Of a DNA stretch of 64,000 bases, positions 4,465 through 19,351 are shown in pieces. The stretch lies in NCBI RefSeq assembly GCF_000026545.1, contig NC_011601.1. The stretch is one strand, 5' to 3'. The translations under genes were made by a program, and so were the position numbers. The notes under the pieces are model-generated. The model was not told the origin of the DNA, made no database searches, and worked only from the letters and a program-made list of their open reading frames with translations. Numbering within the stretch: the stretch's first letter is position 1; each line of letters starts with the position of its first letter. This DNA is from Escherichia coli O127:H6 str. E2348/69 (GTDB lineage Bacteria; Pseudomonadota; Gammaproteobacteria; Enterobacterales; Enterobacteriaceae).

Positions 4465-5799
4465 TTATTTCTGCAATTCCATACGTTTAATGTCGCCGAC
4501 TACGAAGAGGTAGCAGACCATCGCCATCAGCGCTGAACATCCCACAAAAACCAGTGCTGCATTGAAGGAGTGCAGTTCACTTACCAGGTAGCCAATCACC
4601 AGTGGAGTGACAATGGAGGCAACATTGCCAAAGACGTTAAAGACGCCGCCGCAGAGGCCAACAATCTCTTTCGGCGCGGTGTCAGAAATCACTGGCCAGC
4701 CCAGCGCACCAAATCCTTTGCCAAAGAAAGCCAGCGCCATCAGCATGACCACCAGCGTGGTGTTGTTGGTGTAGTTACATAAGATGATGGTGGAAGCCAG
4801 CAACATTCCCAGCACAATCGGTAGCTTACGTGCCAGGGTCAGGGACAAACCGCGTTTGATCAGATAATCCGAGAAGACACCTCCCAGCACGCCGCCCGCA
4901 AAGCCACACAGTGCCGGAATCGAGGCGACCAGACCCACTTTCAGAATCGACATGCCTTTTTCCTGCACCAGATAAATTGGGAACCAGGTGAGGAAGAACC
5001 AGGTGATGGTGTTGATAAAATATTGTCCGAAAAATACGCCCAGCATCATGCGGTTAGAGAGCAATTGCTTGATGTAATGCAGTTTGGGACCGCTTGCTGC
5101 CGCACTGCCCGGCTTTTTGTGGTCCATATCGACCACCGCGCCATTTTCTGAGATAAACTTCAGCTCTTCCGCAGACATACGTGGGTGATCTGTCGGGTTA
5201 TGAATCAACTTGATCCACAGCGCCGTCAGCACAAAACCAATCACCCCCATAACGGTGAAGACGTGCTCCCAGCCCCAGGCGAAAGTCAGCCAGCCAAGCA
5301 GCGGCGAAAAGAGCGCCAGCGAGAAATATTGCGCCGAGTTAAAGATGGCGGAGGCAGTACCACGTTCTTTCGTCGGGAACCAGGCGGCGACAATACGGGC
5401 GTTCGCCGGGAATGATGGCGCTTCCGAGAATCCCAGCATAAAGCGCATAAAGAACATGGAGATCCCTGCCCAGGCCAGCGGGAACATATCAACAAAGCCT
5501 TGCAGGAAGGTGAACAGCGACCAGAAAAAGAGGCTGTAGGTGTAAACTTTTTTCGAGCCAAACTTATCAAGCAGCCAGCCGCCGGGAATTTGCATCAGCA
5601 GGTAGGCCCAGCCAAAAGCGGAGAAGATGTAACCCATCGAAACCGCACTTAACTGCAACTCTTTTGCCACTTCGGTACCAGCAATAGACAGCGTTGCACG
5701 ATCGGCGTAGTTAACGGCGGTAACAATAAAAATAATCAGTAATATTAAATAGCGGGTATGCACGCCTTTCTTTTTTTCGTCAACGGTGTCCAACATCAT
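4465..5799 (-). CDS. garP: Galactarate/glucarate/glycerate MFS transporter (444 aa)
   Basis: Multi-pass membrane protein translation; length and operon position match GarP. Confidence 0.9.
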   Translation of the reverse strand: MMLDTVDEKKKGVHTRYLILLIIFIVTAVNYADRATLSIAGTEVAKELQLSAVSMGYIFSAFGWAYLLMQIPGGWLLDKFGSKKVYTYSLFFWSLFTFLQGFVDMFPLAWAGISMFFMRFMLGFSEAPSFPANARIVAAWFPTKERGTASAIFNSAQYFSLALFSPLLGWLTFAWGWEHVFTVMGVIGFVLTALWIKLIHNPTDHPRMSAEELKFISENGAVVDMDHKKPGSAAASGPKLHYIKQLLSNRMMLGVFFGQYFINTITWFFLTWFPIYLVQEKGMSILKVGLVASIPALCGFAGGVLGGVFSDYLIKRGLSLTLARKLPIVLGMLLASTIILCNYTNNTTLVVMLMALAFFGKGFGALGWPVISDTAPKEIVGLCGGVFNVFGNVASIVTPLVIGYLVSELHSFNAALVFVGCSALMAMVCYLFVVGDIKRMELQK

Positions 5800-6173: not shown

Positions 6174-7745
6174 ATGGCCAACATCGAAATCAGACAAGAA
6201 ACGCCAACTGCGTTTTATATAAAAGTTCACGACACAGATAATGTGGCAATTATTGTTAATGATAATGGCCTGAAAGCAGGAACGCGTTTTCCGGATGGGC
6301 TGGAATTAATTGAACATATTCCCCAGGGGCATAAAGTCGCATTGCTGGACATTCCGGCTAATGGTGAAATTATTCGTTATGGCGAGGTGATTGGTTACGC
6401 CGTGCGCGCAATCTCACGCGGAAGCTGGATCGACGAATCAATGGTTGTACTACCGGAAGCGCCGCCGTTACATACGCTGCCACTGGCAACCAAAGTCCCG
6501 GAACCCTTACCGCCGCTGGAAGGATACACCTTTGAGGGCTATCGCAATGCCGATGGCAGCGTGGGCACCAAAAACCTGCTCGGCATCACCACCAGCGTCC
6601 ACTGTGTGGCAGGCGTGGTGGACTACGTAGTAAAAATCATTGAACGCGATCTGCTACCGAAATACCCGAACGTCGATGGCGTGGTGGGGCTGAATCATTT
6701 GTACGGTTGTGGCGTGGCGATTAACGCACCCGCGGCAGTTGTACCTATTCGTACCATTCACAATATTTCGCTGAACCCTAACTTTGGCGGCGAAGTAATG
6801 GTGATTGGTCTGGGTTGTGAAAAGTTGCAGCCTGAACGCCTACTGACTGGAACGGATGATGTGCAAGCTATTCCAGTAGAAAGCGCCAGCATTGTCAGTT
6901 TGCAGGATGAAAAGCATGTCGGTTTTCAGTCCATGGTCGAGGATATTTTGCAGGTCGCCGAACGCCATTTGCACAAGCTGAATCAACGGCAGCGAGAAAC
7001 CTGTCCGGCTTCAGAACTGGTTGTCGGCATGCAGTGCGGTGGCAGCGATGCGTTTTCTGGCGTAACGGCAAACCCGGCGGTTGGGTATGCGTCTGATCTA
7101 TTGGTGCGCTGCGGCGCAACGGTGATGTTCTCAGAAGTCACAGAAGTGCGTGACGCGATCCATCTGCTGACACCACGCGCAGTGAACGAAGAGGTCGGCA
7201 AACGGCTGCTGGAGGAGATGGAGTGGTACGATAACTATCTCAATATGGGAAAAACCGACCGCAGCGCCAACCCTTCGCCGGGGAACAAGAAAGGCGGTCT
7301 GGCAAATGTGGTGGAGAAGGCACTCGGCTCCATTGCTAAATCGGGTAAAAGTGCAATTGTTGAAGTGCTGTCGCCCGGCCAACGCCCGACTAAACGCGGA
7401 TTAATTTACGCCGCGACGCCAGCCAGCGATTTTGTCTGTGGCACGCAACAGGTGGCTTCGGGTATCACCGTGCAAGTGTTTACGACCGGTCGTGGTACGC
7501 CGTACGGCCTGATGGCGGTACCCGTCATTAAAATGGCGACCCGCACCGAGCTGGCGAACCGCTGGTTTGATTTAATGGATATTAACGCGGGCACTATCGC
7601 TACCGGCGAAGAAACCATTGAAGAAGTGGGCTGGAAGTTGTTCCACTTTATTCTCGACGTCGCCAGCGGGAAGAAGAAAACCTTCTCGGATCAATGGGGA
7701 CTGCATAACCAGCTGGCGGTGTTTAACCCGGCACCGGTGACCTGA
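6174..7745 (+). CDS. garD: Galactarate dehydratase (523 aa)
   Basis: Translation and length match recalled GarD. Confidence 0.92.
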
Positions 7746-7760
7746 TAATTCAATTCGTAT

Positions 7761-7791
7761 TATGCCCGATAGCACACGTTTATCGGGCATA
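7761..7791. terminator. Perfect 10-bp inverted repeat (atgcccgata / tatcgggcat, 9-nt loop) between convergent garD and agaR; probable bidirectional terminator
   Basis: Read directly from the sequence; sits in the 51-bp garD-agaR intergenic gap. Confidence 0.5.
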
Positions 7792-7796
7792 TTGAG

Positions 7797-8621
7797 TCAC
7801 AGCGAAGACGCGTGATCCCCGACCAGAATCACTTCAACTCCAGCCTTTCGCAGTCCTTCCAGACTATCCGCAGGAATGCCTTCATCAACAATGATCATGT
7901 CGATACGTTGAGTATCAATGATCTTATGTAAACTGGAACGATTGAACTTACTGGAATCGGTGACCACGATGATCCGTTCCGCAACTTCGCACATCCGACG
8001 GTTTAAACGGGCTTCATCTTCATTATGCGTGCTGACGCCGCGCTCCAGATCGATCGCATCTACACCAAGAAACAGCATATCGAAGTGGTAATTTTGCAGC
8101 GATTGCTCAGCCTGATCACCGTAAAAAGATTGCGACTGACGGCGCAAATGCCCCCCGGTCATCAGCAGCTCAACGCCTTCCGCTTCCAGCAACGCATTAG
8201 CCACGTTCATACCGTTGGTCATCGCAATTACGTCAGTGTGCTTGCGCATCAGACAAGCAATCTCAAAAGTGGTGGTCCCGGAGTCGAGGATCACCCGATG
8301 ACCAGGCTGAATCAACTCAACGGCAGCTTTCGCAACGCTGCGTTTCATCGCGGTGTTCAGCGCGCTTTTATCTTCCACTGATGGCTCGACTGACGGCGTT
8401 GTGCTATCGCAGATCAACGCGCCACCATAGGCACGCACAGCGATCCCCTGCTTTTCCAGAAACGCCAGATCGTTGCGGATCGTCACAGTAGATACACCAT
8501 ACAACGCCGATAGATCATTAACTTGCACACTTCCTTGCTGGCGCAGGCGTTGAATGATCTGCTCTCGTCGCTCACTGGTGCCTGTCACTCGCTTCTCGCC
8601 TGAAGCGTCGGTATTACTCAT
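7797..8621 (-). CDS. agaR: DeoR-family repressor of the aga regulon
   Basis: Translation shows an N-terminal HTH and a DeoR-type C-terminal domain; sits divergent from kbaZ; the ORF is 274 aa and the precise start is uncertain. Confidence 0.88.
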
Positions 8622-8869: not shown

Positions 8870-10150
8870 GTGAAACATCTGACAGAAATGGTGAGACAGC
8901 ACAAAGCGGGCAAAACAAATGGGATTTATGCCGTTTGTTCCGCACATCCGCTGGTGCTGGAAGCTGCAATCCGCTACGCCAGTGCAAACCAAACGCCGTT
9001 ACTGATTGAAGCAACCTCCAATCAGGTGGACCAGTTCGGCGGTTATACCGGAATGACGCCCGCCGATTTTCGCGGCTTTGTTTGTCAGCTCGCCGACTCG
9101 TTGAATTTCCCGCAGGATGCGCTGATTCTGGGTGGTGACCATCTGGGGCCAAACCGCTGGCAAAACCTGCCTGCCGCTCAGGCAATGGCCAATGCCGATG
9201 ATTTGATTAAAAGCTACGTGGCGGCAGGATTCAAAAAAATTCACCTTGATTGCAGCATGTCCTGTCAGGACGATCCGATTCCCTTAACTGATGACATCGT
9301 GGCTGAACGCGCCGCCCGTCTGGCGAAAGTGGCGGAAGAAACCTGTCTTGAACACTTTGGCGAAGCCGATCTGGAGTATGTCATTGGTACCGAAGTGCCG
9401 GTGCCTGGCGGCGCGCATGAAACCTTAAGCGAGCTGGCGGTCACCACGCCGGATGCCGCCCGCGCCACGCTGGAAGCCCATCGTCACGCTTTTGAAAAGC
9501 AGGGTCTGAATGCCATCTGGCCACGCATTATTGCCCTGGTGGTTCAACCCGGCGTCGAATTCGATCACACCAACGTTATTGATTATCAGCCCGCCAAAGC
9601 GACCGCCTTAAGCCAGATGGTCGAAAACTACGAAACGCTGATTTTCGAAGCGCACTCTACCGATTATCAAACACCGCAATCGCTGCGCCAGCTGGTGATT
9701 GACCACTTTGCCATTCTGAAAGTTGGCCCGGCGCTGACCTTTGCTCTGCGTGAAGCTCTGTTCTCTCTGGCGGCGATTGAAGAAGAACTGGTGCCAGCAA
9801 AAGCCTGTTCTGGTCTGCGTCAGGTGCTGGAAAACGTGATGCTCGACCGCCCGGAATACTGGCAAAGCCACTACCACGGTGACGGCAACGCGCGTCGTCT
9901 GGCGCGTGGTTATAGCTACTCGGATCGCGTGCGCTATTACTGGCCGGACAGCCAGATTGATGACGCTTTCGCTCATCTGGTTCGTAATCTGGCGGATTCA
10001 CCAATTCCGCTGCCGCTGATCAGTCAGTATCTGCCGCTGCAGTACGTGAAAGTTCGCTCCGGCGAGCTGCAGCCAACGCCACGGGAACTCATTATCAACC
10101 ATATTCAGGACATCCTGGCGCAGTACCACACAGCCTGTGAAGGCCAATAA
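8870..10150 (+). CDS. kbaZ: Tagatose-6-phosphate kinase-like / tagatose-bisphosphate aldolase non-catalytic subunit (426 aa, GTG start)
   Basis: Translation [27 protein letters not shown]; GGAGAGGA RBS upstream of the GTG. Confidence 0.88.
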
Positions 10151-10172
10151 GCAAAACAAAGAGGAACACGCT

Positions 10173-10646
10173 ATGCCAAATATTGTTTTAAGTCGGATTG
10201 ATGAACGCTTGATTCACGGTCAGGTCGGCGTTCAGTGGGTCGGATTTGCGGGGGCAAATCTGGTGCTGGTAGCCAACGATGAGGTTGCCGAAGATCCGGT
10301 ACAACAAAACCTGATGGAAATGGTACTGGCAGAAGGGATCGCCGTACGTTTCTGGACGCTGCAAAAAGTCATCGACAACATTCATCGCGCCGCCGATCGA
10401 CAGAAAATCCTGCTGGTTTGTAAAACACCGGCCGATTTCCTGACGCTGGTGAAAGGTGGCGTTCCGGTGAATCGCATTAACGTTGGCAATATGCACTACG
10501 CCAATGGCAAGCAACAAATCGCCAAAACGGTTTCTGTGGATGCGGGTGATATCGCAGCATTTAACGACCTGAAAGCCGCTGGGGTGGAATGCTTCGTTCA
10601 GGGCGTCCCGACAGAGCCTGCTGTGGACCTCTTTAAATTACTTTGA
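10173..10646 (+). CDS. agaV: PTS N-acetylgalactosamine-specific IIB component (157 aa)
   Basis: Translation MPNIVLSRIDERLIHGQVG (mannose-family IIB); AGAGGA RBS; the upstream 12-codon extension in the track is rejected. Confidence 0.88.
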   Translation: MPNIVLSRIDERLIHGQVGVQWVGFAGANLVLVANDEVAEDPVQQNLMEMVLAEGIAVRFWTLQKVIDNIHRAADRQKILLVCKTPADFLTLVKGGVPVNRINVGNMHYANGKQQIAKTVSVDAGDIAAFNDLKAAGVECFVQGVPTEPAVDLFKLL

Positions 10647-10656
10647 GGGATTCATC

Positions 10657-11442
10657 ATGGAAATCAGTCTGTTGCAGGCATTTGCGTTGGGCATTATCGC
10701 CTTTATCGCTGGCCTGGATATGTTTAACGGCTTAACCCATATGCACCGCCCGGTGGTCCTCGGCCCGTTGGTCGGACTGGTACTTGGCGATCTGCATACC
10801 GGTATTTTAACCGGCGGTACGCTGGAACTGGTGTGGATGGGGCTGGCCCCGCTGGCAGGCGCACAACCGCCTAACGTGATTATCGGTACTATCGTCGGCA
10901 CGGCGTTTGCCATTACTACTGGCGTGAAACCCGATGTCGCGGTCGGTGTCGCCGTACCTTTCGCTGTCGCAGTACAGATGGGGATTACCTTCCTGTTCTC
11001 GGTGATGTCCGGCGTGATGTCCCGATGCGACCGGATGGCGGAGAACGCCGATACTCGCGGCATTGAACGCGTGAACTATCTGGCACTGCTGGCACTCGGC
11101 ACTTTCTATTTTCTCTGCGCTTTCCTGCCTATCTACTTCGGCGCGGAACATGCAAAAACCATCATTGATGTCCTGCCGCAACGATTAATCGACGGCCTCG
11201 GCGTCGCGGGCGGCATCATGCCAGCAATCGGTTTTGCCGTGCTGCTGAAAATCATGATGAAAAACGTCTACATCCCCTACTTCATCCTGGGCTTTGTTGC
11301 CGCAGCCTGGCTCAAGTTACCGGTGCTGGCTATTGCTGCCGCTGCGCTGGCGATGGCGATGGCGCTCATCGACCTGCTGCGTAAATCTCCTGAACCGACT
11401 CAACCTGCGGCACAGAAAGAGGAATTTGAAGATGGCATCTAA
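10657..11442 (+). CDS. agaW: PTS N-acetylgalactosamine-specific IIC component, full length (261 aa)
   Basis: Polytopic mannose-family IIC translation; uninterrupted frame. Confidence 0.85.
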   Translation: MEISLLQAFALGIIAFIAGLDMFNGLTHMHRPVVLGPLVGLVLGDLHTGILTGGTLELVWMGLAPLAGAQPPNVIIGTIVGTAFAITTGVKPDVAVGVAVPFAVAVQMGITFLFSVMSGVMSRCDRMAENADTRGIERVNYLALLALGTFYFLCAFLPIYFGAEHAKTIIDVLPQRLIDGLGVAGGIMPAIGFAVLLKIMMKNVYIPYFILGFVAAAWLKLPVLAIAAAALAMAMALIDLLRKSPEPTQPAAQKEEFEDGI

Positions 11443-12310
11443 TCAAACCACCCTGCCGAACGTCAGCGAAAATGAAGAAACACTGCTGACTGGCGTCAAT
11501 GAAAACGTGTATGAAGATCAGAGCATTGGCGCGGAGCTGACGAAAAAAGATATCAACCGCGTCGCCTGGCGTTCCATGTTGTTACAGGCTTCTTTCAACT
11601 ACGAACGTATGCAGGCTTCCGGCTGGCTGTACGGCCTGCTGCCAGCACTGAAAAAGATCCACACTAATAAACGCGACCTGGCGCGCGCTATGAAGGGGCA
11701 TATGGGTTTCTTCAATACCCATCCGTTTCTGGTGACGTTTGTTATCGGCATTATCCTTGCGATGGAGCGTTCTAAGCAGGACGTTAACAGTATTCAGAGC
11801 ACCAAAATTGCCGTCGGTGCGCCGCTCGGCGGGATTGGCGATGCGATGTTCTGGCTAACGCTACTGCCGATTTGTGGCGGGATTGGTGCAAGCCTCGCGC
11901 TACAAGGCTCTATTCTTGGCGCTGTCGTCTTTATTGTGCTGTTCAACGTGGTACACCTGGGGCTGCGTTTTGGTCTGGCGCATTATGCTTACCGCATGGG
12001 CGTGGCGGCGATTCCACTCATTAAAGCGAATACCAAAAAAGTCGGCCATGCTGCGTCTATCGTTGGGATGACGGTAATCGGCGCGCTGGTGGCAACCTAT
12101 GTTCGTTTAAGCACCACGCTGGAAATCACAGCGGGCGACGCAGTGGTTAAGTTACAGGCTGATGTTATCGACAAACTGATGCCTGCCTTCTTACCGCTGG
12201 TCTACACCCTGACCATGTTCTGGCTGGTACGCCGCGGCTGGAGTCCGCTGCGCCTGATTGCAGTGACCGTGGTTCTCGGCATCGTCGGTAAATTCTGCCA
12301 TTTCCTTTAA
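11432..12310 (+). CDS. agaE: PTS N-acetylgalactosamine-specific IID component (292 aa)
   Basis: Translation from MASNQTTLPNVSENEE; the ATG overlaps the agaW stop by 11 nt (translational coupling). Confidence 0.85.
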   Translation: MASNQTTLPNVSENEETLLTGVNENVYEDQSIGAELTKKDINRVAWRSMLLQASFNYERMQASGWLYGLLPALKKIHTNKRDLARAMKGHMGFFNTHPFLVTFVIGIILAMERSKQDVNSIQSTKIAVGAPLGGIGDAMFWLTLLPICGGIGASLALQGSILGAVVFIVLFNVVHLGLRFGLAHYAYRMGVAAIPLIKANTKKVGHAASIVGMTVIGALVATYVRLSTTLEITAGDAVVKLQADVIDKLMPAFLPLVYTLTMFWLVRRGWSPLRLIAVTVVLGIVGKFCHFL

Positions 12311-12327
12311 ATACAATGAGGTATTAG

Positions 12328-12762
12328 ATGTTAAGTATTATTTTGACAGGGCATGGCGGATTTGCCAGCGGCATGGAAAAAGCAATGAAGCAAATTCTCG
12401 GTGAGCAATCGCAGTTTATCGCCATCGATTTTCCGGAAACCTCAAGCACCGCGCTGCTTACATCGCAGCTTGAAGAGGCCATCGTCCAACTGGATTGTGA
12501 AGACGGCATTGTTTTTCTGACGGATTTGCTGGGCGGCACGCCGTTTCGCGTAGCTTCAACGCTGGCGATGCAAAAACCGGGCTGTGAAGTGATCACAGGG
12601 ACCAATTTACAACTGCTACTGGAGATGGTGCTGGAACGCGAAGGGTTAAGCGGTGAAGAGTTTCGTGTGCAGGCGCTGGAGTGTGGACACCGTGGGCTAA
12701 CCAGTCTGGTGGACGAACTTGGTCGCTGCCATGAGGAATGTCCGGTCGAGGAAGGAATATGA
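12328..12762 (+). CDS. agaF: PTS IIA component of the aga system (144 aa)
   Basis: Mannose-family IIA translation (MLSIILTGHGGFASG). Confidence 0.85.
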   Translation: MLSIILTGHGGFASGMEKAMKQILGEQSQFIAIDFPETSSTALLTSQLEEAIVQLDCEDGIVFLTDLLGGTPFRVASTLAMQKPGCEVITGTNLQLLLEMVLEREGLSGEEFRVQALECGHRGLTSLVDELGRCHEECPVEEGI

Positions 12763-13892
12763 CACACGTTCTGCGCGCCAGAAGGCTGCTGACTGAAGAG
12801 GGATGGTTCGATAACCATCAGTTGCGTATTGCTGACGGTGTAATCGCAGCAATCGAACCGATTCCAGTGGGCGTGACTGAACGCGATGCGGAACTGCTCT
12901 GCCCCGCTTACATCGACACCCATGTACACGGTGGTGCGGGCGTTGATGTAATGGATGACGCGCCGGATGCGCTCGACAAGCTGGCAATGCACAAAGCACG
13001 CGAAGGTGTCGGCAGTTGGTTACCGACCACCGTAACCGCGCCGCTTAATACCATTCATGCGGCGCTGGAACGTATTGCTCAACGTTGCCAACGCGGCGGA
13101 CCTGGTGCTCAAATACTGGGGAGTTATCTCGAAGGACCGTACTTCACGCCGCAGAATAAAGGCGCGCATCCGCCGGAGCTGTTTCGCGAGCTGGAAATTG
13201 CCGAGCTGGATCAATTGATTGCCGTTTCTCAGCACACCTTGCGCGTGGTGGCGCTGGCACCGGAAAAAGAAGGGGCATTGCAGGCCATCCGCCATCTTAA
13301 ACAGCAAAACGTAAGGGTGATGCTGGGGCATAGCGCGGCGACCTGGCAACAAACCCGCGCCGCGTTTGATGCTGGTGCCGACGGCCTGGTGCATTGCTAT
13401 AACGGGATGACAGGTTTACATCACCGCGAACCGGGAATGGTTGGCGCGGGATTAACGGACAAGCGCGCCTGGCTGGAACTGATAGCCGATGGTCATCATG
13501 TGCATCCGGCGGCGATGTCGCTGTGTTGTTGCTGTGCGAAAGAGAGAATCGTGCTGATCACCGACGCGATGCAGGCAGCCGGGATGCCGGATGGTCGCTA
13601 TACGTTATGTGGCGAAGAAGTGCAGATGCACGGTGGCGTTGTCCGTACCGCGTCCGGTGGGCTGGCGGGCAGTACGCTGTCTGTCGATGCGGCAGTGCGC
13701 AACATGGTCGAGTTGACGGGCGTAACGCCTGCGGAAGCCATCCATATGGCGTCGCTGCATCCGGCGCGTATGCTGGGTGTTGATGATGTTCTGGGATCGC
13801 TTAAACCGGGCAAACGCGCCAGCGTCGTTGCGCTGGATAGCGGGCTGCATGTGCAACAAATCTGGATTCAGGGTCAATTAGCTTCGTTTTGA
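12759..13892 (+). CDS. agaA: N-acetylgalactosamine-6-phosphate deacetylase, full length (377 aa)
   Basis: Translation from MTHVLRARRLLTEEGW, NagA-like amidohydrolase; ATGA overlap with the agaF stop. Confidence 0.85.
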   Translation: MTHVLRARRLLTEEGWFDNHQLRIADGVIAAIEPIPVGVTERDAELLCPAYIDTHVHGGAGVDVMDDAPDALDKLAMHKAREGVGSWLPTTVTAPLNTIHAALERIAQRCQRGGPGAQILGSYLEGPYFTPQNKGAHPPELFRELEIAELDQLIAVSQHTLRVVALAPEKEGALQAIRHLKQQNVRVMLGHSAATWQQTRAAFDAGADGLVHCYNGMTGLHHREPGMVGAGLTDKRAWLELIADGHHVHPAAMSLCCCCAKERIVLITDAMQAAGMPDGRYTLCGEEVQMHGGVVRTASGGLAGSTLSVDAAVRNMVELTGVTPAEAIHMASLHPARMLGVDDVLGSLKPGKRASVVALDSGLHVQQIWIQGQLASF

Positions 13893-14039
13893 TGGTTTGC
13901 TCCTTTATTGGGCCTTCACTTCCCCCGTAAGACCTTTCTTTTTCTTTCGTTGTGCTCTGTGCAGGGTATCGGATGCGACGCTGACGCGTCTTCTTTGACC
14001 TACGGTACGCCGCATCCGGCAATCGGTGCACATAGCGAC

Positions 14040-14240
14040 GTCATCACGCAATCCTTTAATCTTCCCTTGTCTTTTCTTTCAATGATCACAAATTTCGGTT
14101 TATTTCTTTTTTCTCCGTTGAACTTTCAGTTTCTTTTCTATAGATTTTAATCAACGAAAGAAATCACCAAGTGAAATGAAACGAAAGGCAAGCGAAAGCG
14201 ACAACGCCGACGTCAAGTTCATCAGACTAAGGATTGAGTT
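14040..14240. promoter_or_regulatory. agaS promoter region with repeated TTTCGGTTT / TTTCAGTTT / CGAAAG motifs (candidate AgaR operators)
   Basis: Same motif family as in the agaR-kbaZ region, clustered immediately upstream of agaS. Confidence 0.45.
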
Positions 14241-15395
14241 ATGCCAGAAAATTACACCCCTGCTGCTGCCGCAACCGGTACATGGACTGAAGAAGAGATC
14301 CGCCATCAGCCTCGCGCATGGATCCGTTCACTCACCAACATCGACGCGCTACGTTCCGCGCTCAATAACTTCCTTGAACCGTTACTGCGCAAAGAGAATC
14401 TGCAAATCATCCTGACCGGAGCCGGAACCTCGGCATTTATCGGCGACATCATCGCGCCGTGGCTCGCCAGCCATACCGGTAAAAACTTCAGCGCCGTACC
14501 AACCACCGATCTGGTCACCAATCCAATGGACTACCTGCACCCAGCTCATCCGCTACTGTTGATCTCCTTCGGTCGATCCGGCAACAGCCCGGAAAGCGTC
14601 GCCGCCGTGGAACTGGCAAATCAATTTGTACCAGAATGCTATCACCTGCCGATCACCTGCAACGAAGCGGGCGCTCTTTACCAAAACGCGATCAACAGCG
14701 ACAACGCGTTTGCCCTGCTGATGCCCGCAGAAACGCACGATCGCGGCTTCGCGATGACCAGCAGCATTACCACCATGATGGCCAGCTGCCTCGCGGTTTT
14801 CGCACCTGAGATGATCAACAGCCAAACCTTCCGCGACGTGGCGGATCGTTGCCAGGCGATCCTGACCTCACTGGGCGATTTCAGCGAAGGTGTGTTTGGT
14901 TACGCACCGTGGAAACGGATCGTTTATCTCGGCAGCGGTGGCTTACAGGGCGCAGCACGCGAGTCGGCGCTGAAAGTACTGGAACTGACAGCGGGTAAAC
15001 TGGCGGCCTTCTATGATTCCCCGACCGGATTCCGTCATGGCCCGAAATCGCTGGTCGATAACGAAACGCTGGTGGTGGTATTTGTCTCCAGCCACCCTTA
15101 CACCCGTCAGTATGATCTTGATCTGCTGGCAGAACTCCGCCGCGATAACCAGGCAATGCGCGTAATCGCCATCGCCGCGGAAAGCAACGACGTTATTGCC
15201 GCCGGTCCACATATCATCCTGCCGCCGTCCCGTCACTTTATCGACGTTGAGCAGGCATTTTGCTTCCTGATGTACGCCCAGACATTTGCACTGATGCAGT
15301 CGCTGCACATGGGTAATACGCCGGATACCCCATCAGCCAGTGGCACCGTTAACCGCGTGGTGCAAGGCGTAATCATTCATCCGTGGCAGGCATAA
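14241..15395 (+). CDS. agaS: Galactosamine-6-phosphate deaminase/isomerase, SIS-domain protein (384 aa)
   Basis: Translation and length match recalled AgaS. Confidence 0.9.
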   Translation: MPENYTPAAAATGTWTEEEIRHQPRAWIRSLTNIDALRSALNNFLEPLLRKENLQIILTGAGTSAFIGDIIAPWLASHTGKNFSAVPTTDLVTNPMDYLHPAHPLLLISFGRSGNSPESVAAVELANQFVPECYHLPITCNEAGALYQNAINSDNAFALLMPAETHDRGFAMTSSITTMMASCLAVFAPEMINSQTFRDVADRCQAILTSLGDFSEGVFGYAPWKRIVYLGSGGLQGAARESALKVLELTAGKLAAFYDSPTGFRHGPKSLVDNETLVVVFVSSHPYTRQYDLDLLAELRRDNQAMRVIAIAAESNDVIAAGPHIILPPSRHFIDVEQAFCFLMYAQTFALMQSLHMGNTPDTPSASGTVNRVVQGVIIHPWQA

Positions 15396-16268
<873 letters not shown>

Positions 16269-16434
16269 TCATTAGTTTTTTATGATTTATCCCAATGTAC
16301 TTCCCGATTAATATCGGGGAGTGCCTTAATGGTAAAGGAGATAACTAAACCTTAATAAATACATCAGTAAAATATCGCAACAATAATATATTTAAAAAAA
16401 TTATATTATTCAACTTTATGGTGAGGATCACACA

Positions 16435-16911
16435 ATGAGCAGTCCAAATATTCTCTTAACCCGTATTGATAACCGTCTGGTTCACGGTCAGGTTGGCGTG
16501 ACCTGGACATCCACCATCGGTGCAAATCTGCTGGTAGTCGTGGATGATGTTGTCGCTAACGATGATATTCAACAGAAATTAATGGGTATTACCGCGGAAA
16601 CCTACGGCTTTGGCATTCGTTTCTTTACTATCGAAAAAACCATTAACGTCATCGGCAAAGCTGCACCGCATCAGAAGATCTTCCTGATTTGCCGCACGCC
16701 ACAAACGGTACGTAAATTGGTAGAAGGTGGCATTGACCTGAAAGATGTCAACATCGGCAATATGCATTTCTCGGAAGGGAAAAAGCAAATCAGCAGTAAA
16801 GTTTATGTCGATGACCAGGATCTCACGGACTTACGTTTTATTAAACAACGTGGCGTGAATGTTTTCATTCAGGACGTCCCTGGCGATCAAAAAGAACAAA
16901 TCCCTGACTAA
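16435..16911 (+). CDS. agaB: PTS galactosamine-specific IIB component (158 aa)
   Basis: Mannose-family IIB translation, paralogous to agaV. Confidence 0.9.
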   Translation: MSSPNILLTRIDNRLVHGQVGVTWTSTIGANLLVVVDDVVANDDIQQKLMGITAETYGFGIRFFTIEKTINVIGKAAPHQKIFLICRTPQTVRKLVEGGIDLKDVNIGNMHFSEGKKQISSKVYVDDQDLTDLRFIKQRGVNVFIQDVPGDQKEQIPD

Positions 16912-16949
16912 ATCTAAAATCGCCTTAATATTGGTTTGAGGTAATAAAA

Positions 16950-17753
16950 ATGCATGAAATAACCCTACTCCAGGGATTATCCCTGGCGGCGTTAGTTTTC
17001 GTTCTGGGGATTGATTTTTGGCTGGAAGCCTTATTTTTATTCCGCCCGATAATCGTTTGTACCCTTACAGGTGCTATTCTCGGTGATATTCAGACTGGCT
17101 TAATTACCGGTGGCCTGACAGAGTTGGCTTTCGCCGGATTAACCCCTGCAGGTGGTGTTCAGCCGCCCAACCCTATTATGGCGGGTCTGATGACCACCGT
17201 CATTGCATGGTCTACGGGCGTTGATGCCAAAACGGCAATTGGTCTTGGCCTGCCGTTTAGTTTGTTAATGCAGTACGTCATTCTGTTCTTCTATTCCGCT
17301 TTCTCATTATTTATGACCAAAGCCGATAAATGCGCGAAAGAGGCGGATACGGCAGCGTTTTCCCGACTTAACTGGACAACGATGCTCATCGTTGCTTCAG
17401 CGTATGCGGTGATTGCTTTCCTCTGTACTTACCTGGCACAGGGGGCGATGCAGGCGCTGGTGAAAGCGATGCCCGCCTGGCTGACCCACGGCTTTGAAGT
17501 GGCTGGCGGTATTCTGCCTGCCGTTGGTTTTGGCTTGCTGCTGCGCGTAATGTTCAAAGCGCAATATATCCCTTACCTGATCGCCGGTTTCCTGTTCGTT
17601 TGCTACATCCAGGTCAGCAACCTGTTGCCGGTTGCCGTGTTGGGCGCAGGCTTTGCGGTGTATGAGTTTTTCAATGCGAAATCCCGGCAGCAAGCGCAAC
17701 CGCAGCCCGTTGCCAGTAAAAATGAAGAAGAGGACTACAGCAATGGGATCTGA
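16950..17753 (+). CDS. agaC: PTS galactosamine-specific IIC component (267 aa)
   Basis: Polytopic IIC translation. Confidence 0.9.
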   Translation: MHEITLLQGLSLAALVFVLGIDFWLEALFLFRPIIVCTLTGAILGDIQTGLITGGLTELAFAGLTPAGGVQPPNPIMAGLMTTVIAWSTGVDAKTAIGLGLPFSLLMQYVILFFYSAFSLFMTKADKCAKEADTAAFSRLNWTTMLIVASAYAVIAFLCTYLAQGAMQALVKAMPAWLTHGFEVAGGILPAVGFGLLLRVMFKAQYIPYLIAGFLFVCYIQVSNLLPVAVLGAGFAVYEFFNAKSRQQAQPQPVASKNEEEDYSNGI

Positions 17754-18534
17754 AATCAGTAAAAAAGATATCACCCGTCTGGGCTTTCGTTCGTCACTGC
17801 TACAAGCAAGCTTTAACTACGAAAGGATGCAGGCGGGCGGTTTTACCTGGGCGATGTTGCCGATCCTGAAAAAGATTTATAAGGACGACAAACCGGGCCT
17901 AAGCGCGGCGATGAAAGATAACCTCGAATTTATTAATACCCACCCTAATCTGGTCGGATTCCTGATGGGGTTATTAATTTCGATGGAAGAAAAAGGAGAA
18001 AACCGCGACACCATTAAAGGCCTCAAAGTGGCGCTGTTTGGCCCAATCGCCGGGATTGGCGATGCGATTTTCTGGTTTACCTTGTTGCCAATTATGGCGG
18101 GGATTTGCTCATCGTTTGCCAGTCAGGGGAACCTGTTGGGGCCGATTCTATTTTTCGCCGTTTACCTGCTTATCTTCTTCCTGCGCGTCGGCTGGACCCA
18201 CGTCGGTTATTCAGTCGGCGTGAAGGCGATCGATAAAGTGCGAGAGAACTCGCAGATGATTGCTCGTTCGGCAACCATCCTCGGGATCACGGTAATCGGC
18301 GGGCTGATCGCTTCGTATGTGCATATTAACGTGGTGACATCGTTTGCCATCGACAGTACCCACAGCGTCGCGCTGCAGCAGGATTTCTTCGATAAAGTCT
18401 TCCCGAACATTTTACCGATGGCCTACACCCTGTTGATGTATTACTTCCTGCGGGTGAAAAAAGCGCATCCGGTGCTGTTAATCGGCGTGACTTTTGTGCT
18501 CTCTATTGTTTGTTCTGCATTCGGCATTTTGTAA
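17743..18534 (+). CDS. agaD: PTS galactosamine-specific IID component (263 aa)
   Basis: Translation from MGSEISKKDITRLGFRS; overlaps the agaC stop by 11 nt. Confidence 0.88.
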   Translation: MGSEISKKDITRLGFRSSLLQASFNYERMQAGGFTWAMLPILKKIYKDDKPGLSAAMKDNLEFINTHPNLVGFLMGLLISMEEKGENRDTIKGLKVALFGPIAGIGDAIFWFTLLPIMAGICSSFASQGNLLGPILFFAVYLLIFFLRVGWTHVGYSVGVKAIDKVRENSQMIARSATILGITVIGGLIASYVHINVVTSFAIDSTHSVALQQDFFDKVFPNILPMAYTLLMYYFLRVKKAHPVLLIGVTFVLSIVCSAFGIL

Positions 18535-19302
18535 ATGGAACGAGGCACTGCGTCTGGTGGTGCCTCTTTACTAAAGGAATTTCATCCTGTGCAACCCCTT
18601 CAACAAGTTGAAAACTATACGGCGTTAAGTGAACGTGCCAGCGAATATTTATTGGCCGTGATCCGTAGCAAACCGGATGCCGTGATTTGCCTGGCGACCG
18701 GAGCCACGCCATTACTGACGTATCATTATCTGGTAGAAAAAATCCAGCAGCAGCAGGTTGATGTCAGCCAGCTCACCTTCGTCAAGCTCGACGAATGGGT
18801 GGATCTGCCATTAACGATGCCTGGTACCTGCGAAACTTTCCTTCAACAGCATATCGTGCAGCCGCTGGGGCTACGTGAAGACCAGCTCATCAGCTTTCAC
18901 TCCGAAGAGATAAATGAGACAGAGTGCGAACGGGTAACGAACCTGATTGCGCGCAAAGGCGGTCTGGATTTATGCGTTCTCGGATTGGGGAAAAACGGTC
19001 ATCTTGGGCTGAACGAACCGGGAGAAATCCTGCAACCGGCCTGCCATATCAGTCAACTTGATGCCAGAACACAGCAACATGAGATGTTAAAAACCGCGGA
19101 CCGTCCCGTGACTCGTGGGATCACCTTAGGCCTGAAGGATATTCTCAATGCCAGCGAAGTTTTGTTACTGGTGACTGGCGAAGGAAAACAGGATGCGACA
19201 GAACGTTTTCTCACGGCTAAAGTCTCCACCGCTATCCCGGCTTCATTTTTATGGCTGCATAACTATTTCACATGCATGATTGATGAAATGTGTCGTCGTT
19301 AA
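18535..19302 (+). CDS. agaI: Putative galactosamine-6-phosphate deaminase/isomerase, NagB-like (255 aa)
   Basis: NagB/6-phosphogluconolactonase-like translation; ATG directly abuts the agaD stop. Confidence 0.85.
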   Translation: MERGTASGGASLLKEFHPVQPLQQVENYTALSERASEYLLAVIRSKPDAVICLATGATPLLTYHYLVEKIQQQQVDVSQLTFVKLDEWVDLPLTMPGTCETFLQQHIVQPLGLREDQLISFHSEEINETECERVTNLIARKGGLDLCVLGLGKNGHLGLNEPGEILQPACHISQLDARTQQHEMLKTADRPVTRGITLGLKDILNASEVLLLVTGEGKQDATERFLTAKVSTAIPASFLWLHNYFTCMIDEMCRR

Positions 19303-19351
19303 CTCGCCAGGTAAAGGTGTTGTAGCGCTATTCCTGCTGCGACGCCTGTAA

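Follow-up and report, generated by a model that had tools for sequence, protein, structure and literature searches.

What does the missing prlF-yhaV toxin-antitoxin module say about the history of the garD-agaR junction in Escherichia coli O127:H6 str. E2348/69? We examined this junction in a window of 64,000 nucleotides from the E2348/69 chromosome (NC_011601.1), and the coordinates below refer to this window unless another locus is named. The original prediction placed the end of garD at 7745 and the end of agaR, on the opposite strand, at 7797, and both positions agreed with the open reading frames and with profile matches. The garD gene, encoding galactarate dehydratase (523 aa), occupies 6174-7745 on the + strand, as indicated by TIGR03248 (939.6 bits), the RefSeq annotation of E2348/69 and alignment with K-12. 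The agaR gene, encoding the aga repressor (274 aa), runs convergently on the - strand at 7797-8621 (NF040755, 463.6 bits; NF007316, 574.4 bits). Between the two genes lies the predicted 51-bp spacer (7746-7796), in which neither the open reading frame list nor tblastn revealed prlF-yhaV. The 1.8 kb around the junction are 100% identical in the chromosome NZ_CP059840.2 of the enteropathogenic strain E2348/69.

PrlF-YhaV is a type II toxin-antitoxin module according to the passage of PMC11598369 that cites Schmidt et al. 2007. In K-12 MG1655 the order is garD, 148 bp, prlF, yhaV, 54 bp, agaR, which bears out the arrangement given by the original prediction and which is tabulated with identical spacings in PMC5120126. 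The predicted absence from E2348/69 also held. Using PrlF and YhaV as tblastn queries, we obtained no match in the 64-kb window. At the locus itself, neither the YhaV toxin (PF11663, searched with K-12 YhaV) nor the PrlF antitoxin (PF15937) was detected by tblastn, and the K-12 left spacer and promoter were absent from the alignment. For the rest of the genome, a chimeric query made of an E2348/69-specific yhbX anchor and the K-12 prlF-yhaV coding sequence was run by sensitive blastn against every complete E. coli genome. The three E2348/69 / O127:H6 chromosomes ranked first with one place each, which was the anchor only, and B2 control strains such as NC101 and NGF1 gave two places. No prlF-yhaV DNA was found in these three chromosomes by this search, which excludes DNA copies down to roughly 65-70% identity and has remote protein homologues outside its reach.

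Apart from the cassette, the E2348/69 and K-12 loci share the same convergent flanks, which are 97-98% identical, and the same neighbourhood, with garPLRK on one side and kbaZ-aga on the other. Compared with occupied E. coli in general, garD and agaR of E2348/69 are 97-99% identical and lie in the same surroundings. When the junction was aligned, homology with K-12 and with the occupied B2 strain E02 stopped exactly at the garD stop codon (7743-7745, the left edge of the allele-specific segment) and resumed within agaR at TCCCCGACC, position 7816. These boundaries were read by eye and with anchored regular expressions; default MAFFT gap placement was poor. The interval between the two edges measures 70 bp in E2348/69 (7746-7815); in K-12 it consists of 1006 unrelated bp that carry prlF-yhaV (L001 2347-3352). 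The divergence runs past the agaR stop codon to 7815, which the original prediction had missed, and the last agaR codons are therefore allele-specific too. AgaR ends in …LVGDHASSL (274 aa) in E2348/69, with the final residues D-H-A-S-S-L encoded at 7800-7817 on the - strand, compared to …LVGE (269 aa) in K-12. In contrast to K-12, E2348/69 is without prlF, yhaV, the prlF promoter and both K-12 hairpins, and has the 70 bp with a hairpin of its own instead. The 51-bp spacer sequence was not found on either side of the K-12 cassette, and the occupied allele is not the empty allele plus an insert that splits the old spacer. This suggests that the two alleles replace one another and that no simple insertion took place, and for this reason we call the relationship xenologous.

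The original prediction had left two readings side by side, an ancestral empty site or a scarless deletion. If a K-12-type ancestor in phylogroup B2 had lost prlF-yhaV by a deletion that left no scar or almost none, this would fit the occupied state of nearly every E. coli, of the type strain of E. albertii and of two further Escherichia lineages. It would also fit the flanks, which are almost identical in the empty B2 strain UTI89 and the occupied B2 strain E02 and host-type right up to the heterology. However, such a deletion would have to leave behind 70 bp that do not occur in the occupied allele and give AgaR five additional residues, and it could not create a sequence 86-88% homologous to two other cassette-free junctions, those of contig L120 and of a pathogenicity-island copy described below. 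A real deletion is found in HH97 (L005 3245-3340), where about 780 bp were lost from early prlF into the agaR stop codon. That event kept the 148-bp left spacer, the prlF promoter and ~64 nt of prlF, and it removed the stop codon of agaR, which is annotated as truncated. The sequence of E2348/69 already contradicts a deletion, which we regard as extremely improbable; the ancestral reading is the half of the prediction that stands, and it draws its support from the junctions of outgroups.

The outgroup survey, in which one genome per species was searched with AgaR, returned 80 loci. The garD and agaR genes were convergent and adjacent in at least 41 species from 12 non-Escherichia genera (Klebsiella, Kluyvera, Citrobacter, Raoultella, Enterobacter, Salmonella (arizonae, diarizonae), Lelliottia, Kosakonia, Trabulsiella, Pluralibacter, Pseudocitrobacter and Phytobacter), mostly with gaps of 36-250 bp. 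No match to PrlF or YhaV was found in the garD-agaR gaps of these species, and each gap has its own hairpin or REP-like sequence. The cassette was present in only three of the surveyed loci, the Escherichia representatives, where the gap measures 1002 bp each time. They comprise the type strain of E. albertii, Escherichia sp. MOD1-EC7003 and a divergent lineage, labelled E. coli E69, with flanks of 92% identity. A blastn-short search of the 80 enterobacterial loci with the 70-bp segment gave no homologue outside the E. coli island copies. An AgaR-tail similarity in Yersinia massiliensis and one MAG, obtained by tblastn through the agaR stop, was unsupported by the DNA and was treated as chance. 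In Buttiauxella, the garD-agaR interval (L050 5857-8313; L074 5847-9346) holds an MFS transporter and a LysR regulator, and in B. noackiae also a Fic-domain protein. The garD-agaR junction accepts different inserts in different genera.

A closer relative of the E2348/69 junction came from a metagenome scan for the hairpin pattern, in which 13 of 24 matches were unrelated AT-rich terminators from other organisms. One match, contig L120 (OLIF01000030.1, a metagenome contig), is E. albertii, with identities to the type strain of 98.4% for garD, 99.0% for agaR and 99.3% for the kbaZ region. The contig lacks the cassette. The junction in L120 (6712-6792) is 86% identical to that of E2348/69 and has the same hairpin arms, and its AgaR ends in GEHASSL. 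The divergence of this junction matches that of the flanks between E. coli and E. albertii (garD 88.5%, agaR 88.8% identical), as expected for vertical descent. The evidence for cassette-free E. albertii comes from this one metagenomic contig, and judged by these sequences E. albertii is, like E. coli, apparently polymorphic for the cassette.

A second cassette-free junction occurs in E. coli itself, where a decayed garD'-agaR'-kbaZ' copy adjoins malX in a pathogenicity island of about 448 genomes. Examples are ECONIH1 (L004 10929-13570, in which agaR' is intact with 274 aa), DEF2 (L006 10700-13935) and UTI89 (~1,094,700). At 88% identity to that of E2348/69, the island-copy junction shares the 11-bp arms, contains 11 additional bp, has another loop and gives AgaR the tail GELASSL. 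The copy is a mosaic: the 5' part of garD' is ~78% identical to everything, its 3' part matches E. coli at ~90%, and agaR' and native agaR share 97-99% identity. The hairpin loop of L120 is the exact reverse complement of the island-copy loop, as if the palindrome had flipped. Another metagenome contig, L109, was considered as a native E. coli locus with an island-type junction; over the final 420 bp it shares 99% identity with the UTI89 island copy, and its garD has an internal stop, and it was left out as probably a chimeric assembly or a recombinant.

The paralogous island copy could in principle have removed the cassette from the native site by gene conversion. Its agaR' is similar enough to native agaR for recombination, UTI89, IHE3034, UM146 and NU14 are among the best matches listed for it, and UTI89 has an empty native site as well. 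Against this, the native junction is unlike every island copy seen, from which it differs by its 88% identity, an 11-bp indel, another loop and GDHASSL rather than GELASSL. The 448 island-copy matches fall in the 80-90% identity band, with one record at 90-95% and none higher. Moreover, E2348/69 has no island copy, and UTI89 has kept its two versions distinct. Gene conversion from the island is, in our view, very unlikely.

Collectively, the outgroup, L120 and island-copy junctions suggest that a cassette-free junction with a 274-aa AgaR is the ancestral Escherichia state. As would be expected of an allele that was never occupied, the E2348/69 junction is homologous to that of E. albertii L120 at a divergence similar to that of the flanks. 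We consider it highly probable that the cassette-free junction of E2348/69 is the original Escherichia allele and not the product of a deletion, and that the K-12-type arrangement is a xenologous replacement. With an ancestral empty site, the 274-aa AgaR would be the ancestral form and the 269-aa protein of K-12 a by-product of the cassette allele.

How common the two alleles are was then read from 5426 complete E. coli genomes, 5362 of which have the garD-agaR region. DNA of prlF-yhaV was present in 5168/5426 (about 95%), almost always as a single copy (5189 places in all). The E2348/69-type junction was present in 187/5426, with one copy each and at least 99% identity over an 87-bp query (7738-7824). 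The sum of 187 and 5168 is 5355, compared to 5362 genomes with the region, and in essence each state excludes the other. The 187 carriers include UTI89, S88, APEC IMT5155, BEN2908, the type strain ATCC 11775 and E2348/69, all of which we take to belong to phylogroup B2. Since empty and occupied B2 strains have nearly identical flanks, the direction of the latest swap within B2 is unreadable from them. The E2348/69 lineage may have carried the cassette-free allele without a break, or it may have regained it from other E. coli by the same kind of recombination. In the Nissle derivative EcN_Sk (L087, B2), the GarP, GarD, PrlF, YhaV, AgaR, KbaZ and AgaV proteins are identical to those of K-12 and the 1002-bp cassette segment is 100% identical; these identities indicate a multi-kb import from a K-12-like donor.

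The mobility of the occupied allele is seen when its divergence is compared with that of its flanks. Between K-12 and the E. albertii type strain, where garD and agaR are 88.5% and 88.8% identical, the cassette segment is 97.4% identical (2.6% different). The E. albertii cassette is closer still to that of the B2 strain E02, with 13 mismatches per 1002 bp (1.3%). Between the E69 lineage and K-12, the cassette is 96.1% identical (3.9% different) and the flanks are 92% identical. A cassette that differs by 1.3-2.6% between flanks that differ by about 11% in the E. coli/E. albertii comparison points to the cassette allele as the horizontally spreading one. Judged by these divergences, the cassette appears to be far more recent than its host species. 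The DNA flanking the E. albertii cassette is of the E. albertii type up to the heterology, which suggests that the allele was exchanged alone, with crossovers in the conserved final ~100 bp of garD and in the few dozen bp at the end of agaR. A low-divergence tract that seemed to include ~100 bp of garD and 85 bp of agaR in E. albertii was withdrawn, as comparison with the cassette-free L120 showed these flanks to be E. albertii-type or conserved in all Escherichia.

Short-tract exchange of the garD-agaR junction between species clearly occurs, and it could also have worked in the opposite sense, by importing a cassette-free allele into B2 from another Escherichia species and replacing an ancestral occupied allele there. 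The E2348/69 junction would then be of the pre-insertion type but foreign. The B2-type occupied allele (E02) differs from that of K-12 by 2.5%, about the A-to-B2 genome distance, which fits a long residence of the cassette in B2. An import has no known donor, however, with the E. albertii junction 14% and the island type 12% different, and the flanks carry no foreign SNPs. The 87-bp junction query was also at least 99% identical in all 187 matching genomes. We therefore judge such an import unlikely, although somewhat less so than the deletion or the gene conversion.

Sequence similarity links the K-12-type allele to Pseudocitrobacter. The garD-side hairpin of K-12, AAAACATGGCCTTAGTGCCATGTTTT, agrees at 25/26 positions with the empty junction between garD and agaR in Pseudocitrobacter faecalis. 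The closest YhaV proteins outside Escherichia (81-83% identical) are encoded on Pseudocitrobacter-like contigs. The longest of these, L092 (cassette at 4515-5503), has the order garD-prlF-yhaV-agaR, with garD 92.6% and garP 95% identical to P. faecalis. A diverged prlF-yhaV (81-83% aa) lies directly downstream of garD in L092, L093 and L096; in L092 and L093 agaR bounds it on the other side, and in L096 it is followed by a PfkB kinase and a DeoR-family regulator. On the Pseudocitrobacter-like contigs, the same hairpin occurs to the left and to the right of the cassette, and its 20-nt core, ACATGGCCTTAGGGCCATGT, forms a direct repeat that could mediate precise gain or loss. The left spacer of these contigs is 76% identical to the K-12 left spacer. 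The shared garD-side hairpin and left spacer suggest that the K-12-type allele is related to the Pseudocitrobacter type rather than to the spacer of Escherichia. At the DNA level, the cassette of E. coli is about 22% diverged from the Pseudocitrobacter-like one, roughly as core genes are. This divergence suggests that the donor is unsampled or the transfer old; being core-gene-like, it would also allow an old cassette somewhere within the Escherichia lineage, with homogenisation across species as a recent event.

Under the favoured reading of an ancestral empty site, the 51-bp spacer and the last six agaR codons would be the original garD-agaR junction, surviving in E2348/69 and 186 other complete genomes. 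The K-12-type segment of 1006 bp, which brings a terminator hairpin of its own on the garD side, the prlF promoter with prlF and yhaV, another hairpin and a shorter end of agaR, would have replaced the old 70 bp and spread in E. coli, E. albertii and other Escherichia lineages. This spread would be due to homologous recombination, the crossovers falling in the conserved ends of the two flanking genes. A further step, which we advance only as a tentative possibility, is that the prlF-yhaV segment is a selfish replacement allele that sweeps through Escherichia by very short-tract recombination, biased towards gain by the penalty for loss of the antitoxin, with the B2 junction as a pre-sweep relic. 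The last ~100 bp of garD and the last agaR codons would serve as its anchors, and it would cross the boundary between E. coli and E. albertii in either direction. If this were true, the locus would offer a natural setting in which to measure how addiction drives the spread of alleles on chromosomes.

The E2348/69 spacer contains the perfect inverted repeat that the original prediction had described, but its arms are 11 nt (100% complementary) and not 10 bp. The hairpin occupies 7761-7791, with arms at 7761-7771 and 7781-7791 and a 9-nt loop. Folded as RNA, the + strand gave -19.2 kcal/mol (z = -5.2, with 0/200 shuffles as good) and the - strand gave -16.1 kcal/mol (z = -3.1). The structure resembles a bidirectional intrinsic terminator in that its stem-loop is stable, symmetrical and G+C-containing and lies just past the stop codons, 15 nt from that of garD and 5 nt from that of agaR, and in that the E2348-type arms are conserved as the loop drifts. 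Unlike such a terminator, it has no U-tract 3' of the stem on either strand, where the tails are UUGAGUCAC and AUACGAAUU. A consensus terminator scan of 7500-8100 returned 0 terminator-like sites and a promoter scan nothing relevant; a terminator function is putative. No Rfam match to the junction was obtained at E <= 1. The hairpin is not a dispersed repeat of the REP/BIME-like kind, since the 87-bp junction query found exactly one place per genome in the 187 genomes. All 11 arm pairs are invariant in four junction sequences of three distinct types (E2348, island and E. albertii) that differ by 12-14% overall, and the loop differs. Being invariant, the arm pairs provide no covariation support. 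From its position, the hairpin is probably the shared 3'-end structure of the garD and agaR transcripts. At the point where both convergent transcripts end, it would act as a weak terminator in the two directions or by blocking 3' exonucleases. The outer 7 bp of the stem (ATGCCCG / CGGGCAT) are common to the K-12 hairpin between yhaV and agaR, which could reflect partial homology of the right-hand part.

The presence or absence of prlF-yhaV is an already-described kind of E. coli polymorphism, and variable toxin-antitoxin modules in B2 have been published. Chromosomal toxin-antitoxin modules are horizontally transferred cassettes between core genes according to the passage of PMC5120126 that cites Ramisetty & Santhosh 2016 and Fiedoruk et al. 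2015. The prlF-yhaV locus is like the cassettes treated in the relevant passages of PMC5120126, PMC3464220 and PMC4513841 in having a promoter and two genes between core genes and in being missing from some lineages. In counter-selection work on UTI89, yhaV was among the MG1655 toxins tested, which were chosen from toxins reported absent from UTI89 (Khetrapal et al. 2015, PMC4513841). The type II toxin-antitoxin set is reduced in B2 strains, E2348/69 among them (Norton & Mulvey 2012, PMC3464220), and in a mouse model of urinary-tract infection CFT073 deleted for sohA(prlF)-yhaV showed no significant defect in colonisation (PMC3464220). For the annotation of E2348/69, the present analysis means one K-12 toxin-antitoxin module fewer, consistent with the published reduced B2 set. 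What it adds is the probable direction of evolution at garD-agaR, with the empty site as the old allele and the K-12 arrangement as the derived, horizontally spreading one, together with a clear movement of the cassette between species. With flanks that stay host-type, the locus is a clean case of a chromosomal toxin-antitoxin cassette crossing species, and it bears on the debate over such modules as selfish elements.

Three other regions of the window also drew our attention. Between rnpB and tdcR (807-964), the annotation consists of short pseudogene fragments only. The aga cluster at 8870-19302 looks complete, with agaW, agaE, agaF and nagA (agaA) annotated as intact; in K-12, the corresponding part of the cluster presumably carries a deletion. 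Beyond it, agaI and rsmI are directly adjacent, separated by 49 bp (19303-19351), an arrangement shared by 1835/5425 genomes. K-12 and most other genomes have extra DNA at this position, which makes it a second empty-site polymorphism, 11.5 kb from garD-agaR. In K-12, we take this extra DNA to be the yraHIJK fimbrial operon.
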